A stretch of DNA of 64,000 bases from the sequence record PQ351811. One strand, 5' to 3'. A program made the translations under genes and the position numbers. The notes under the pieces are model-generated. The model did no database searches. It saw only the letters and a program-made list of their open reading frames with translations, and was not told the DNA's origin. Shown in pieces: positions 45,109 through 51,635 of this stretch. This DNA is from Shigella phage SSG23. The first letter of the stretch is position 1; every line of letters begins with the position of its first letter.

Positions 45109-45377
45109 TGAAAATAACCATTATTCAATTATGGTCGGCTACCAGTGAAAACTACGCAGTAGCCGTAGATTATTACGGTTTACAATATCTCTATGATGAA
45201 GCGAGCGCATCATGGCTTCCGGTGCAAGAAAATAGCGATATCTCAAGACCTGCTACTGTATTCGATCCGGGCGTTGTCTTTATCAATATTGACGAGACAG
45301 TAGCAAAACTGCGTAAGAAAGCAATCAATAAGAAAAAGGTGATGTGGGATGAAAGAATATTTGAAACTATTGCGTGA
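45108..45377 (+). CDS. hypothetical protein
   Basis: 89-aa ORF; 3' end overlaps td start. Confidence 0.35.
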   Translation: MKITIIQLWSATSENYAVAVDYYGLQYLYDEASASWLPVQENSDISRPATVFDPGVVFINIDETVAKLRKKAINKKKVMWDERIFETIA

Positions 45378-46581
45378 TGTTCTTGATAATGGCTGGCCTC
45401 GTGAAGACCGAACGGGGGTAGGTACGCTCTCTAAATTCGGCGCAGAGATGCGAATTGACTTAAGCAAGGGTTTCCCCTTACTGACAACTAAAAAGATGGC
45501 TACAGCCTCTGTAATTGGCGAGTTGCTATGGTTTATGGAAGGGTCGCTGGACCGCCGTCGCTTACAGGAAATTACACGCGGTAAATTCGATGACGAAGCC
45601 TTTGATATTTGGCGCGGTAACTGTCTTGATATGAAAGAAAAGAATCCTTTGCGATTCAACGGCTATAATGTTGGCAATATGTATGGTATGGCGTGGCGAC
45701 GCAAGCCGATTCATCCACACGGTGAAATCAAAATTAAGCGCGTTAAGAGCAAATATACACATACATTTAAGCACCCGTGGGTAGAAGACTTTACGCCAAC
45801 CAACGACACAGAAGACCGTTTATGTGCTATCTGGCGTGGTATGCGTTATGAAGAGTTTGATTCTGAATATAATCAATTCTTAGTAGCAGACCACTGGAAG
45901 ACTCAATCCAATTTTGTTAATGATGCATACTGCTTGTGGGGATTCCAGGAATGGGTAGATGATGGTTATTTCGGTTATCTGCTTGATAGTGATTATCTGG
46001 GTGGGGATATGTTCGCACCGGATACCACAATCTTTGTTAATATGGACGTAGACACATCAAGCCCTAAAGACGATGAAGAATATATCTATCGCCCGAAGAT
46101 TTGGGAAGACCAGTTACAAAACGTGATTGAACAAATTAAAAATAATCCAACGGATCGCCGGATCATTATTGACTCATGGAACGTACAAGGAACACATAAT
46201 GCTGTATTAGGTGTATGTCATCCTTTCGTGCAATTCTACGTCAATGAAGGTAAACTGTCCTGTATGTGGTTTCAGCGAAGCGTAGACAGCTTTTTGGGCT
46301 TGCCCTTTAACGTCGCCAGCTATGCGCTGTTAACTCACATCATAGCGAAAATGTGCGACCTTGAGGTTGGCGAACTGATTTTCTCCGGCGGAGATACTCA
46401 CATTTACAAAAACCACTTTGACCAAGTTATGGAGCAATTAAACCGTGTTCCGTTTGATAAACCAACAATTGAGTTGCCGGAATTTAAATCTTTAGATGAG
46501 GTATTGACAAAAACTCCGAAAGACTTTAAAATTCACAACTATCAAAGCCACCCGGCAATCACCGCTCAAATGGCAGTATAA
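45349..46581 (+). CDS. td: thymidylate synthase (ThyA family) with large internal insertion
   Basis: 410 aa; both ends collinear with E. coli ThyA/T4 Td (DRTGVGTLS, FPLLTTKK, catalytic VCHPFVQFY, LGLPFNVASYALL, GGDTHIY); about 125 aa inserted after YGMAWRR. Confidence 0.85.
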   Translation: MKEYLKLLRDVLDNGWPREDRTGVGTLSKFGAEMRIDLSKGFPLLTTKKMATASVIGELLWFMEGSLDRRRLQEITRGKFDDEAFDIWRGNCLDMKEKNPLRFNGYNVGNMYGMAWRRKPIHPHGEIKIKRVKSKYTHTFKHPWVEDFTPTNDTEDRLCAIWRGMRYEEFDSEYNQFLVADHWKTQSNFVNDAYCLWGFQEWVDDGYFGYLLDSDYLGGDMFAPDTTIFVNMDVDTSSPKDDEEYIYRPKIWEDQLQNVIEQIKNNPTDRRIIIDSWNVQGTHNAVLGVCHPFVQFYVNEGKLSCMWFQRSVDSFLGLPFNVASYALLTHIIAKMCDLEVGELIFSGGDTHIYKNHFDQVMEQLNRVPFDKPTIELPEFKSLDEVLTKTPKDFKIHNYQSHPAITAQMAV

Positions 46582-46617: not shown

Positions 46618-46920
46618 ATGAAAATATGCCGCGTTGTAAACAAGTACAATAGCGATTTTGATGTTAATATTCAGCGTGGTACTATGTGGGGAAATCCATA
46701 CACCGCCAAAGAATACGGACGAGAGAAAGCTATTGCATTATACAAAGAGTGGTTGTATAATAAGATTCGAAATGGTGAGATAACACGAGCGCATTTAGAA
46801 GTATTAAGACATATGCGCTTAGGTTGTACTTGCTACCCTAAGAAATGCCACGGTGAAGTATTGGCGGATCTCGTTAATAGAGTTTTCGGCGATACTCCAG
46901 AAAATACGCTTGATATATGA
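46618..46920 (+). CDS. DUF4326-family protein with gp33-like C-terminal tail
   Basis: 100 aa; GNPYT and LGCTCYPKKCHGEVL fit DUF4326 pattern as recalled; C-terminus DTPENTLDI closely matches gp33 C-terminus DEPTNTLDI. Confidence 0.5.
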   Translation: MKICRVVNKYNSDFDVNIQRGTMWGNPYTAKEYGREKAIALYKEWLYNKIRNGEITRAHLEVLRHMRLGCTCYPKKCHGEVLADLVNRVFGDTPENTLDI

Positions 46921-46931
46921 AGTGAGGTAAT

Positions 46932-49175
46932 ATGATTAAAAATGTTGTTAAGTCTTCCGGTCTGACTGTTCCGTTTGAAAAAGAAAAAGTAATGAAAATT
47001 CTGGAAGCGGCAGCCGAAGGTCATAACGTTGATCCATATGAATTGTTTGATATGGTTGAACCGCTTCTGACAGAAGGTATGTCTACCAACGATATCCAGA
47101 AAGTATTGATTAAGGTCGCCGCAGATAACATTACTGTAGAAACACCTGATTATCAATATGTAGCAAGTAACCTTGCAATGTTCGCGCTTCGTAAATCAGT
47201 ATATGGTCAATTCCAACCGATTGATTTTTACAGCCATATTGAGCGTAATATTGCAACCGGAAAATATGATCGCGAAATTCTGCAAAAGTATTCCCGTGAA
47301 GAAGTGGAATATCTGGAGAAATTCATCGATCATAAACTTGATTTTAAAATGACCTATGCTGGTGCGATGCAGTTAAAAGAGAAATATCTTGTTCAGGATC
47401 GCAGCACTAAGAAAATCATTGAAACACCGCAATTTGCGTATATGCTGATCGGTATGTGCTTACATCAAGAAGAGACAGAAAATCGACTTGAACATGTGAT
47501 TGATTTTTATAATGCTGTTGCGAATAAGCAAATTTCTCTGCCTACTCCGATTATGGCGGGTGTGCGTACCCCGACACGACAATTTAGTTCGTGTGTGGTG
47601 ATTGAAAGTGATGACTCATTGCAGGGCATCAATGAAACAGCAAATGCAATCATCAAGTATATTAGTAAGCGTGCTGGTATCGGCATCAATGCTGGTATGA
47701 TTCGCGCGGAAGGATCTAAGATCGGGCATGGTGAAGTTCGTCATACTGGCGTTATCCCGTTCTGGAAACATTTTCAGACTGCCGTTAAGTCATGTTCACA
47801 AGGCGGTATTCGTGGCGGGGCAGCGACTCTCTATTACCCAATGTGGCATTTAGAGTTTGAAAGTCTTATTGTGTTGAAGAACAACAAAGGGGTAGAAGAT
47901 AACCGCATCCGTCATCTTGATTACGGCGTACAGATTAATAACCTGATGGTAGAGCGATTCCTTAAACGCGATTACATTACTCTGTTTAGTCCAGATGTTG
48001 CGGGTGGCTTGTTGTGGGATCTGTACTTCCGAGATGAGGAAGGATTCCGCCAGCTTTACGAAAAACTGGAAAAAGATCCGAGTGTGCGTAAAACTCGTGT
48101 TAAAGCCGAAGACCTGTTTTTAGCGGTGGCAATTGAACGTTTTAACACTGGTCGAATCTATCCAGCGTTCACAGACAACATGAACAATCACGGGGCGTTT
48201 ATTCGTAATGTAGCACCGATTAAACAATCTAACCTGTGTTGTGAAATTGCTCTGCCGACAAAACCGATGGGTCGTGATGATTCAGAGATCAGCCTATGCA
48301 CTTTGGCAGCATATGTTTTAGGTAATTTCGATATCGAAAACATGGAAGAAGTAGAACGCATTGCTATGGTTATGGTGCGTGCGCTTGACAACTTGTTAGA
48401 TTATCAGGATTATCCTGTAAAACAAGCACTGACAGCCAAAAAACGTCGCTCTCTGGGTGTTGGCGTGACTAACTTTGCATCATATCTGGCGGATAATTTC
48501 TTCACATATGAAGACGCTAACGAGTTTACGCATAAAACGTTTGAACGCTTGCAATATGCTCTGATTAAGGCTAGTGTGCAACTGGCTAAAGAGAAGGGTG
48601 CTTGCGAACTGATGCACGAAACACGTTATGGTCGCGGTGAACTTCCTATTGACTGGTACAAAAAGACAGTAGATGAACTGGTTGATCCGGTGTATGAGAT
48701 GGATTGGGAAGAACTGCGCGAAGACCTGAAAAAATATGGCATTCGTAACAGTACGCTTTCGGCGCTGATGCCTTGTGAGTCGTCTTCTCAGGTGTCTAAC
48801 AGCACAAACGGTATTGAACCGCCTCGCGGGATTGTATCGGTTAAAGGATCAAAGGAAGGACAATTTAATCAGGTTATTCCGAACGTAGAGAATAATGCTG
48901 ATGTTATTGACCTGCTTTGGACACTGATCAAGAAAGGTAACAAGCCTTATCTGACACTGGCAGCGATCATGCAGAAGTTTGTAGATCAGGCGATTAGTTC
49001 CAATACATCCTACGATCCAAGCACTTATAAGACTGGTAAAGTCGATATTGCTGATGTATTAGATGATATGTTGTTTGCTCAATATTACGGCCTCAAGACA
49101 CTGTATTACGCTAACGTGCGTGATGGTGCTGATGGTACGGAAGACGCTAGCGAATGTTCATCTTGCAAACTGTAA
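46932..49175 (+). CDS. nrdA: ribonucleotide reductase large subunit NrdA (class Ia)
   Basis: 747 aa; N-terminal ATP-cone, active-site region NLCCEI, C-terminal CxxC tail (CSSCKL). Confidence 0.9.
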   Translation: MIKNVVKSSGLTVPFEKEKVMKILEAAAEGHNVDPYELFDMVEPLLTEGMSTNDIQKVLIKVAADNITVETPDYQYVASNLAMFALRKSVYGQFQPIDFYSHIERNIATGKYDREILQKYSREEVEYLEKFIDHKLDFKMTYAGAMQLKEKYLVQDRSTKKIIETPQFAYMLIGMCLHQEETENRLEHVIDFYNAVANKQISLPTPIMAGVRTPTRQFSSCVVIESDDSLQGINETANAIIKYISKRAGIGINAGMIRAEGSKIGHGEVRHTGVIPFWKHFQTAVKSCSQGGIRGGAATLYYPMWHLEFESLIVLKNNKGVEDNRIRHLDYGVQINNLMVERFLKRDYITLFSPDVAGGLLWDLYFRDEEGFRQLYEKLEKDPSVRKTRVKAEDLFLAVAIERFNTGRIYPAFTDNMNNHGAFIRNVAPIKQSNLCCEIALPTKPMGRDDSEISLCTLAAYVLGNFDIENMEEVERIAMVMVRALDNLLDYQDYPVKQALTAKKRRSLGVGVTNFASYLADNFFTYEDANEFTHKTFERLQYALIKASVQLAKEKGACELMHETRYGRGELPIDWYKKTVDELVDPVYEMDWEELREDLKKYGIRNSTLSALMPCESSSQVSNSTNGIEPPRGIVSVKGSKEGQFNQVIPNVENNADVIDLLWTLIKKGNKPYLTLAAIMQKFVDQAISSNTSYDPSTYKTGKVDIADVLDDMLFAQYYGLKTLYYANVRDGADGTEDASECSSCKL

Positions 49176-49183
49176 AATAAGTG

Positions 49184-49212
49184 TTGACGCGGGGAGAAAT
49201 CCCCGCTATAAT
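49184..49212 (+). promoter_or_regulatory. PeSL-type promoter TTGACG-[GCGGGGAgaaaTCCCCGC]-TATAAT
   Basis: Palindromic 17-bp spacer 49189-49206. Confidence 0.6.
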
Positions 49213-49243
49213 ACAACCATCAAAAACAAATGAGGATTTTATT

Positions 49244-49411
49244 ATGACCAAATTAAAATGTGTTGCTGTAGATTTTGAGCTAGCTGATAGCTTTGTTGTC
49301 GGTGATGAATATGATGCTCGACATGATGGGACTTGCTACTACGTTAAGGATGAATACGGCGTAGAATGGGCTATTCTTCCTGATGATAAATGTTTTGAGG
49401 TTGTCGGATAA
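49244..49411 (+). CDS. hypothetical protein
   Basis: 55-aa ORF from RBS-proximal ATG. Confidence 0.3.
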   Translation: MTKLKCVAVDFELADSFVVGDEYDARHDGTCYYVKDEYGVEWAILPDDKCFEVVG

Positions 49412-49584
49412 TGGCTACTGTATGGTTATTGATTGCAATAAGCAATTCAATGTATAATTACGGAAATATGTCAAGCATTGAATTTGCCACAAAGCAGGAT
49501 TGCGTTAAAGCTCGCGAGATTATCCGCGAAGACAATAAACGCTTTATGAATCTGTATTGCATTGAAAAGCAGAAGGTGAACTAA
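49411..49584 (+). CDS. 57-aa micro-protein (tandem paralog A)
   Basis: MATVWLLIAISNSMYNYGNMSSIEFATKQDC...; start overlaps upstream stop (TAATG); below ORF-track cutoff. Confidence 0.35.
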   Translation: MATVWLLIAISNSMYNYGNMSSIEFATKQDCVKAREIIREDNKRFMNLYCIEKQKVN

Positions 49585-49751
49585 TGGCTACATTATGGTT
49601 ATTGCTTTCCGTTAGTGTCGGCGTATATAATAAAGGAACTGTTACCAGCGTAGAGTTTTCATCACATCAAAGTTGTTTTGAAGCCATGCAGGAATTGCAA
49701 CAGGATAGCGAAATAAACAGAAATACTAAGTTCTTTTGTGTTAAAAAGTGA
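49584..49751 (+). CDS. 55-aa micro-protein (tandem paralog B)
   Basis: MATLWLLLSVSVGVYNKGTVTSVEFSSHQSC...; start overlaps stop of paralog A. Confidence 0.35.
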   Translation: MATLWLLLSVSVGVYNKGTVTSVEFSSHQSCFEAMQELQQDSEINRNTKFFCVKK

Positions 49752-49820
49752 TAGTGAGGTGAATTAATCCTTCTTCTGGATACCTGATAAATAATGGTAT
49801 ACAGAAAAGAGGATTTATTC

Positions 49821-50468
49821 ATGAACTTACAAAAACTACACGACGCAATCATAGAAAAAGCGAAGATAAGAGGAACCGTTGAAGGATATAAGGAAACACA
49901 TCATATTTTACCGCGATCTATGGGTGGCGGTGATGAAGTCGATAACCTGATTGATTTGACAGCCAAAGAACATTTTGTGATTCATCACCTGCTAGCAAAA
50001 ATTCATGGTGGACCTATGGCGCAAGCATTTGGTATGATGTGTTTGGCAAAAAATGCTAAGACCAATAAAAGAGATTATGTTGTTTCGTCTAGGGTATATG
50101 AACAAGCTAGGGTACTGATATCTGAACAAAGAAAGGGTAAGCCTATGAAAGAAGAAACGCGAAGAAAGATTAGCGAATCTTCGAAAGGTGTATTGAAATC
50201 AGAAGAGACAAAAGCTAAAATGCGTAAACCAAAAACAAAGGAGCACGCGTTAAACATTTCAAAAGCTAGAATGGGAAGTAAAAATCCTATGTTTGGGAAA
50301 CCATCGCCAACTAAAGGAATACCACATAGCGAGGAAATGAGAAAGCTGATTGCACAAAGGACAAAGGAAGCAACAATGGCAGATCCTTGTCCGCATTGCG
50401 GTAAAATTACCAATAAAGGCAATGCTCTACGATGGCACTTTGATAACTGCAAAATGAGGAATATGTGA
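49821..50468 (+). CDS. HNH homing endonuclease (MobE-like; HNH + NUMOD3 repeats + C-terminal zinc finger)
   Basis: ETHHILPRSMGGGDEVDNLIDLTAKEHFVIH; repeated basic K-rich motifs; CPHCGK; inserted between nrdA and nrdB like T4 mobE. Confidence 0.75.
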   Translation: MNLQKLHDAIIEKAKIRGTVEGYKETHHILPRSMGGGDEVDNLIDLTAKEHFVIHHLLAKIHGGPMAQAFGMMCLAKNAKTNKRDYVVSSRVYEQARVLISEQRKGKPMKEETRRKISESSKGVLKSEETKAKMRKPKTKEHALNISKARMGSKNPMFGKPSPTKGIPHSEEMRKLIAQRTKEATMADPCPHCGKITNKGNALRWHFDNCKMRNM

Positions 50469-51635
50469 ATGGGAAATACGGTATTTAATCGTGAACATGT
50501 TGATATTATGAATGAACCGATGTTTCTGGGTAGCGGTTTAGGTATCGCTCGTTATGACATTCAGCGTCATCAAGTATTTGAAGAACTAATTGAAAAATCT
50601 CTGTCATTTTTCTGGCGTCCAGAAGAGATTTCACTTGCAACTGACCGCATTCAATATCTGAATATGGGCGATGTTGAAAAACGTTTCTTTACAGAAAACT
50701 TGAAGTATCAGACATTACTTGATTCTATTCAAGGTCGCGCACCATCCGCAGCATTTGGTCCAATTGTATCTGATCCGACTCTCGATACATGGTTGCAAAC
50801 ATGGACATTCAGCGAGACAATTCATAGCCGCAGTTATACTCACATTATGCGTAACTGTTTCATTGATCCGGCTAGTGAGTTTGACCAGATCATCGATAAC
50901 CCTGCTATCATGAAGCGAGCGGAATCTATCGGGCAATATTATGATGATGTTCTTTATTGGATTCGTAAGTATGAGAATGCAAAAGAAGATCTCCGCTATT
51001 GGGAAGAACGAGACGACCAGACAGCATTAGATGATGCAAGAAGAGTTTTTGAAGATACAAAACGAGATCTGATGGCGTCGATTTATCTGTGTGCACACTG
51101 CGTTAATGCACTGGAAGCAATCCGTTTTTATGTATCCTTTGCATGTACTTTCAGCTTTGCCGAACGTGGTTTACTGGAAGGTAACGCGAAGATCATGAAA
51201 TTTATTGCGCGTGATGAACAACTTCACTTAAAAGGTACACAATACATTATTCGTCAATGGCAAACGGGGGCTGACGGTGATGAGTGGAAACAGATTGCGG
51301 AAGAACTTGAAGACGAAGCAACGAAAATCTTTCTGGATGTTGTCGAGCAAGAAAAAGAATGGGTAGACCACCTATTCGCAATGGGGGCAATTCCTAACCT
51401 GTCACCGGAAATTCTGAAAACCTATGTAGAATACCTGGCAGATTCCCGTATGCGTGCTGCCGGACTGAAAAGCCCGTTTAGTGTTCGTCGTCATCCTTTA
51501 CCGTGGATGCGTAAGTGGTTAAACTCTGACGAAGTTCAAAACGCGGCGCAAGAAGTAGAGATCATGTATCTGGTATCTCAGGTTAATACCGATTTAACAG
51601 ACGACGACTACAACCGATTCGGGAAATATCTATGA
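50469..51635 (+). CDS. nrdB: ribonucleotide reductase small subunit NrdB
   Basis: 388 aa; VDIMNEPMFLGSGLGIARYDIQRHQVFEEL matches T4 NrdB N-terminus; uninterrupted (no intron). Confidence 0.9.
   Translation: MGNTVFNREHVDIMNEPMFLGSGLGIARYDIQRHQVFEELIEKSLSFFWRPEEISLATDRIQYLNMGDVEKRFFTENLKYQTLLDSIQGRAPSAAFGPIVSDPTLDTWLQTWTFSETIHSRSYTHIMRNCFIDPASEFDQIIDNPAIMKRAESIGQYYDDVLYWIRKYENAKEDLRYWEERDDQTALDDARRVFEDTKRDLMASIYLCAHCVNALEAIRFYVSFACTFSFAERGLLEGNAKIMKFIARDEQLHLKGTQYIIRQWQTGADGDEWKQIAEELEDEATKIFLDVVEQEKEWVDHLFAMGAIPNLSPEILKTYVEYLADSRMRAAGLKSPFSVRRHPLPWMRKWLNSDEVQNAAQEVEIMYLVSQVNTDLTDDDYNRFGKYL

Follow-up and report, generated by a model that had tools for sequence, protein, structure and literature searches.

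Resident mini-protein genes of a widespread phage family lie between nrdA and a homing endonuclease insertion at the nrdB start of a Krischvirus

In phage T4, the intergenic region between nrdA and nrdB holds mobE, which targets nrdB, and in related phages other endonucleases replace mobE, making the region a recurrent insertion site (PMC2988022). The closest described counterpart of the locus reported here is found in phage RB49, whose 2003 record lists two small genes at the same nrdA-nrdB position, RB49p232 (NP_891803) and RB49p231 (NP_891802). They are the orthologues of the genes that we call ORF1 and ORF2, with 98% and approximately 95% identity, respectively, and with the same order and the same TAATG overlaps. 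Nothing of substance differs between the two pairs, and of the two phages only the one studied here has an HNH cassette inserted downstream. On a wider scale, comparable small open reading frames are found in lambdoid nin regions and in the variable parts of T4-like genomes: they likewise have approximately 50-70 codons, are tightly packed with overlapping stops and starts, and are dispensable, variably present, swapped among unrelated phages and without an assigned function, although they form a descriptive class and not a homologous family.

The window analysed here is a stretch of 64,000 nucleotides from Shigella phage SSG23 (PQ351811), and the features given below for 49184-51635 lie on its plus strand. 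By sequence, it is a Krischvirus, i.e., an RB49-like T4-type phage of E. coli/Shigella; over a 701-bp stretch around the small genes, it shares 100% identity with Shigella phage SFHK24 and 95-99% with some 50 other Krischvirus genomes. The genes at the locus run in the order td, a DUF4326 gene, nrdA, ORF0, ORF1, ORF2, an HNH endonuclease gene, nrdB and a polynucleotide kinase/phosphatase gene. The DUF4326 gene (100 aa, 46618-46920; Pfam E=6.5e-23; PHROG 464) lies between td and nrdA, where RB49 has only a 68-bp gap, and it is thus another variable insertion in this nucleotide-metabolism cluster. The thymidylate synthase (45349-46581) has 410 aa with an extra segment in the middle of the protein, some 120 residues above the typical ThyA/Td length; since the RB49 protein is equally long, the long form is shared within the genus.

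ORF1 (49411-49584, 57 aa) and ORF2 (49584-49751, 55 aa) each begin on the stop codon of the preceding gene, the A of the ATG being the last base of the TAA (TAATG at 49409-49413 and 49582-49586). A Shine-Dalgarno-like GAGG lies 10 nt 5' of the ORF1 start, and an AAGGTG lies 5 nt 5' of the ORF2 start. The two proteins are 36% identical over 55 residues, i.e., over their whole length (BLASTP, E=3e-16), and both have profile matches to PHROG 5579 (ORF1, E=2e-23, residues 2-53 on profile positions 1-52; ORF2, full length, E=3.6e-24). Thus, the initial annotation, which had proposed a pair of overlapping paralogous micro-ORFs with stop/start overlaps, was exact in coordinates, lengths and both junctions, except that the overlapped string contains three genes instead of two. 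Over six Krischvirus alleles, pN/pS was 0.08 for ORF1 and 0.17 for ORF2, with 8 of 12 and 16 of 26 variable sites, respectively, at third codon positions. Conservation in related genomes, by which the initial annotation was to be checked, was found, with ORF1 and ORF2 in 52-54 Krischvirus records (ORF2 in 54 at at least 80% identity). ORF1 and ORF2 are genuine protein-coding genes, conserved under purifying selection. They had been described as missed; they do fall below a 60-aa cutoff for open reading frames, but GenBank already annotates both as hypothetical proteins in SFHK24, RB49 and about 50 other genomes, and the record of phage kaaroe assigns both to pVOG VOG8694. They are therefore already known, as annotated hypothetical genes of a catalogued family.

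The first gene of the overlapped string is ORF0 (49245-49411), which encodes an acidic protein of 55 aa with three cysteines (PHROG 16302; annotated as RB49p233) and is unrelated in sequence to ORF1 and ORF2. The strongest hit of a promoter scan lies upstream of it, a sigma-70-type site at 49184-49212 (TTGACG, a 17-nt spacer and TATAAT; 11 of 12 matches) that begins just past the nrdA stop codon and is unchanged in all 12 other Krischvirus genomes inspected. The string ORF0-ORF1-ORF2 is probably driven by this putative promoter. The spacer contains a hairpin (49189-49206) with a 7-bp G+C-rich stem and a GAAA loop, GCGGGGA GAAA TCCCCGC, and with no U-tract. The RNA fold of 49176-49225 reaches -19 kcal/mol (z = -4.9; none of 200 shuffled sequences was as stable), while an Rfam scan of 49000-50000 gave no match. 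The hairpin may be a 3' stabiliser of the nrdA transcript, in which case a single sequence, 49184-49212, could serve both as this stabiliser and as the promoter of the small-gene string.

ORF0 is independently inactivated in eight of the 12 other Krischvirus genomes inspected, by at least five kinds of lesion: an added T in a T-run (kaaroe, FL38 and FL04), a GAG to TAG change at codon 12 (G37-3 and ELT3), a 2-bp deletion (FL20), a stop at codon 41 (JEP8) and a lost A in an A-run (pEJ01). Sequencing errors could lie behind some of the changes in homopolymers. Such recurrent independent loss suggests that ORF0 is dispensable or is counter-selected on some hosts. Since lesions in both ORF0 and ORF1 occur in three genomes, a joint loss of the two genes was considered, but it was dropped given that ORF1 and ORF2 are intact despite a broken ORF0 in kaaroe, FL38, FL04, ELT3 and pEJ01. 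Translational coupling along ORF0-ORF1-ORF2, as the initial annotation had proposed, is plausible, as the stop/start overlaps and the Shine-Dalgarno sequences would fit it. A strict dependence on upstream translation is doubtful, because ORF1 and ORF2 each have a Shine-Dalgarno sequence of their own and remain intact where ORF0 is truncated early.

The paralogs themselves have recombined. In G37-3 and FL20, a single chimeric copy is present in which the MATV of ORF1 is joined to the body of ORF2 (loci L007 and L008, 1501-1668), and a deletion of 174 bp has taken place between the first 21 nt of each paralog, which are near-identical. Judged from these sequences, ORF1 was precisely deleted when the two genes recombined at these 5' ends. 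In addition, ORF1 of JEP8 carries C31F, and a metagenomic protein of 44 aa (P0014) is an ORF1/ORF2 chimera joined at a shared CAGGAT, with the first conserved cysteine lost. These three cases, the first being that of G37-3 and FL20, show that ORF1 is dispensable. A metagenomic contig carries a divergent member (P0015, 47% identical to ORF2) directly 5' of a near-identical nrdB, and a related-loci search of IMG/VR returned two near-identical loci only. On sequence comparison, the slot before nrdB is stable and its occupant is highly variable. ORF1 is 51% identical to family member P0018 and ORF2 is 50% identical to P0017, so that neither is the nearest relative of the other, which points to an old duplication or to separate acquisition of two copies.

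Downstream of ORF2, the window carries a homing endonuclease cassette (49769-50480) that comprises an open reading frame with HNH and NUMOD3 motifs, running from 49794 or 49821 to 50468, and a rewritten 5' end of nrdB (50469-51635). In alignment to RB49, near-identity extends as far as 49768, which matches the AT of the RB49 nrdB ATG, and returns at about 50481, some codons into nrdB; these sharp boundaries indicate a discrete insertion at the nrdB start. The cassette changes the first codons of nrdB from MSVFNRE to MGNTVFNRE, and a cluster of synonymous differences is seen in nrdB just past the rewritten codons. The true start of the endonuclease is likely the ATG at 49821, which has a GAGGA 8 nt upstream, and not that at 49794. 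The label MobE-like, given to this neighbour in the initial annotation, is fair: the protein has the NUMOD3 and HNH motifs (Pfam), matches PHROG 655 and, like the T4-type enzymes, is encoded between nrdA and nrdB, by the nrdB start. Its relation to those enzymes is nevertheless distant, at approximately 30% identity to the Tequatrovirus matches, whereas relatives of approximately 50% identity, also beside nrdA, are found in Mosigvirus HY03 and Proteus phage phiP4-3. A gene of 215/224 aa with HNH and NUMOD3 motifs occupies the junction at the nrdB start in SFHK24, PTE-Eco09 and phiS, while G2494 and G37-3 have a different, unrelated-looking HNH gene of 179 aa at the same junction (L013; L007, 1679-2218). 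The site immediately ahead of the nrdB start codon is a hot spot for homing endonucleases.

The family to which ORF1 and ORF2 belong, PHROG 5579 / VOG8694, is far broader than the Krischviruses. A word-indexed protein search with ORF2 alone returned close Krischvirus alleles only, and it was an exhaustive profile search over 1.84 billion representative proteins that revealed the family, with 46 matches at E<1e-3. Reading of the sequences showed three of these (P0016, P0045 and P0058) to be long proteins of low-complexity repeats, and these false positives were set aside; the rest have 44-113 aa as called. In an alignment of 53 members (51-76 aa as called, the two longest with starts that appear mis-called), F25, C31 and C52 are invariant, W5, L7 and G18 are near-invariant, and a YNxG turn is common. 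Every one of the 53 has exactly two cysteines, in the same two columns and 18-28 residues apart. ORF1 and ORF2 carry all six of these residues and exactly two cysteines, and with their full-length matches, their size and their location in phage DNA they are members of the family. Scans with Pfam, NCBIfam and PADLOC gave no meaningful match for ORF0, ORF1 or ORF2, nor did a Pfam scan of all 53 members; a profile search of the PDB gave chance-level matches only, no sequence relationship to named nin genes was found, and a literature search for ORF1, ORF2 and PHROG 5579 found nothing.

The contexts of the members are always accessory, early or replication regions. By tblastn and context, members are present in T1-like Drexlerviridae, among them Henu7 and FritzSarasin; a T7-like Koutsourovirus, in which the gene is unannotated, an Erwinia jumbo phage, several Vibrio phages and a siphovirus replication module also carry one, and in a P22-like contig the member lies just before ninG. 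Members also occur in Salmonella, Citrobacter and Enterobacter chromosomes, and the single chromosomal locus examined, in Enterobacter cloacae, is a lambdoid prophage nin region, with the member between the replication genes and ninB. Clear members lack annotation in the GenBank records of Henu7 (L003, 3001-3156), where the gene overlaps the last codons of a polynucleotide kinase gene, and of Enterobacter phage SDFMU_EhYP (L005, 2644-2805), these two being listed at 51 and 56 aa, respectively. A polynucleotide kinase/phosphatase gene is also near the member in Krischvirus, after nrdB, and in FritzSarasin, which may be coincidence. In Vibrio phage 1.100.O, the member NVP1100O_40 (L017, 2495-2680) lies amid genes for a DD-peptidase-domain protein, two proteins with transmembrane helices and a lipoprotein; these surroundings look like a lysis cassette, and among the contexts seen no other points to a role in the envelope.

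The fold of ORF2 was modelled with AlphaFold2. With a shallow alignment, the pLDDT was 67.9, and with the 53-sequence family alignment, it rose to 93.7 with a pTM of 0.73. The model contains strand b1 (residues 5-11), strand b2 (20-25), helix a1 (28-39), helix a2 (42-47) and strand b3 (48-54), and each ORF is predicted to form a compact soluble beta-beta-alpha-alpha-beta domain in which the hydrophobic N-terminus is strand b1 of the core sheet and not a helix. BFVD contains many uncharacterised phage proteins of 50-70 aa with the same fold. A Foldseek search against the PDB found nothing; matches to the fold were otherwise generic alpha+beta, and the best structural match was the periplasmic domain of MzrA (PDB 4pwu). 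Strand b1 is hydrophobic on both faces, with W5, L7 and residue 9 on one side and L6, I8 and V10 on the other, and F51 and V53 on strand b3 would point to the side opposite the helices. A monomer of 55 residues could not cover both faces of the sheet, from which we infer self-association or partner binding. This topology puts C31, in the first turn of a1, and C52, on b3, at the same end of the domain, a placement that would allow a staple or one half of a metal site.

Several other explanations of the locus were weighed. Many ORFs of 30-60 aa arise by chance in the window, and ORF1 and ORF2 could in principle be two such frames, not translated, in an A+T-rich intergenic stretch. The paralogy of the two proteins, the PHROG matches at about 1e-23, the low pN/pS values, the homologues in unrelated phage groups and the confident fold prediction refute this for practical purposes and leave it a negligible probability. 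The initial annotation had further suggested that the pair is cargo that travels with the homing endonuclease. Only the adjacency in this window speaks for such an association; two distant family members also have a GIY-YIG or an HNH gene no more than 1-2 kb away, which we attribute to coincidence. The comparative data contradict it. Of the 52 Krischvirus records whose match spans most of the 701-bp query, 49 stop matching at base 619, which is 18 bp beyond the ORF2 stop and short of the HNH insert. In RB49, kaaroe, FL38, ELT3, pEJ01, FL04, JEP8 and FL20, nrdB follows directly after ORF2, as it does in most other Krischviruses; in all, about 50 genomes have the two small genes with nrdB next to them and without an HNH gene. 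As a co-occurrence test, the 52-54 Krischvirus records with ORF1 and ORF2 compare with only seven phage records that contain this endonuclease at at least 95% identity. In addition, the HNH insert is sharply bounded and lies 3' of ORF2, a different HNH gene is found at the same site in G2494 and G37-3, and the T4 literature describes the nrdA-nrdB gap as a place where endonucleases insert repeatedly, nrdB being the gene that they target (PMC2988022). Many phages that encode a family member have no HNH gene adjoining it. The suggestion of cargo is thereby refuted, and we give it next to no chance of being right: by comparison of these genomes, the micro-ORFs are resident genes that pre-date the HNH insertion, which took place downstream of them at the nrdB start, and their link to the endonuclease is coincidental.

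The main rival to a soluble accessory protein, although not the best explanation, is that the products are small membrane-anchored or exported peptides, as the initial annotation had read from the hydrophobic N-terminus. On this reading, the N-terminal run would serve as signal peptide or anchor and a C31-C52 disulfide would staple the remaining 40 or so residues in the periplasm. The proteins might then act in the envelope, e.g., in superinfection exclusion, in lysis control or, like MzrA, by modulating a sensor kinase. We consider this unlikely, as the sequences of the family do not support it. The best 19-residue Kyte-Doolittle mean is 0.61 for ORF1 and 1.07 for ORF2 and ranges from 0.46 to 1.43 in the family, with none of the 53 members reaching 1.6. 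No Lys or Arg precedes the run (up to the W column) in ORF1, ORF2 or 46 of the 53 members, and in two of the other seven the called start looks wrong. The uncharged N-terminal run has only 9-18 residues, Sec signal peptides are rarely as short as the 13-17 residues that a leader would have here, and the near-invariance of W5 and L7 is unlike signal peptides. Moreover, AlphaFold2 builds residues 5-11 as a sheet strand (pLDDT 88-94 for the block), Pro occupies position +1 of the would-be cleavage site in the Erwinia homologue, and the Vibrio record flags transmembrane helices in the neighbours but not in the family gene. A role as accessory factors of the phage ribonucleotide reductase, e.g., as a redox or metal-delivery partner of NrdA or NrdB that uses the cysteine pair, was also considered. 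The nrdA-nrdB location is conserved across Krischviruses, the divergent P0015 directly precedes a near-identical nrdB, the cysteine pair is invariant, and in E. coli yfaE adjoins nrdAB, which offers an analogy. We nevertheless regard this role as improbable, because the family occurs in phages that lack nrdA or nrdB: the T1-like Henu7 has neither gene annotated, its sole reductase-labelled coding sequence being a 123-aa open reading frame in the head-tail module, and the members in lambdoid nin regions and siphovirus replication modules have no ribonucleotide reductase nearby. The proteins also lack a CxxC motif and have no match to NrdH, NrdI or ferredoxin families in Pfam and NCBIfam, and two viable phages have lost ORF1 by deletion.

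The explanation that we prefer is that ORF1 and ORF2 are resident backbone genes of Krischviruses, two old paralogs of a widespread family of phage mini-proteins. They would be transcribed from the sigma-70-type promoter-like site after nrdA and translated as the stop/start-overlapped string ORF0-ORF1-ORF2 ahead of nrdB, and each product would fold as a compact soluble domain with its N-terminus as strand b1. The invariant C31/C52 pair would probably be a structural staple, or else a metal or redox site. The product would be a non-essential early accessory protein that binds a host or phage protein stoichiometrically, in host takeover or counter-defence, and is not an enzyme. The target-binding role is offered as a committed guess that the present data weakly favour, and to the explanation as a whole, i.e., a resident mini-protein family with a soluble fold and a non-essential early target-binding function, we would give an even chance. 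For the way in which such a protein could work, p56 of phage phi29, an inhibitor of UDG, provides an analogy, being an early protein of approximately 55 residues with a beta-sheet and a helix that binds stoichiometrically. The structural overlap with p56 is weak and the match is not significant (TM approximately 0.5, Foldseek E>3); p56 is an acidic DNA mimic, whereas the net charge of the family is about 0 to +2, and there is no evidence that links the two. A more specific and rather speculative version, to which we assign a low probability, is that PHROG 5579 is a class of cysteine-stapled (disulfide- or metal-bridged) obligate dimers that associate through the exposed sheet face and neutralise a host protein, e.g., a component of anti-phage defence, and that the Krischvirus pair forms a heterodimer or has two diverged specificities. 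The heterodimer or two-specificity idea would fit the divergent alleles at the nrdB slot and the recurrent recombination between the paralogs.

Taken together, little is at stake in the question first raised by this locus, since ORF1 and ORF2 are ordinary annotated hypothetical genes of a T4-like phage, and the initial interpretation fails on both points that gave it interest, namely the association with the endonuclease, which is refuted, and the proposal of membrane or secreted products, which finds no support. What is of value is the family itself, which has approximately 55 residues, an invariant cysteine pair and a confident predicted fold, and is both widespread and entirely uncharacterised. 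It recurs in the dispensable regions of T4-like, T1-like, T7-like, lambdoid, jumbo and Vibrio phages. Such regions have yielded many host-takeover and counter-defence proteins, which makes the family a reasonable and cheap candidate for a functional screen. The locus also shows clearly, in natural genomes, how endonucleases replace one another at the nrdB start and how recombination between tandem paralogs deletes a gene.
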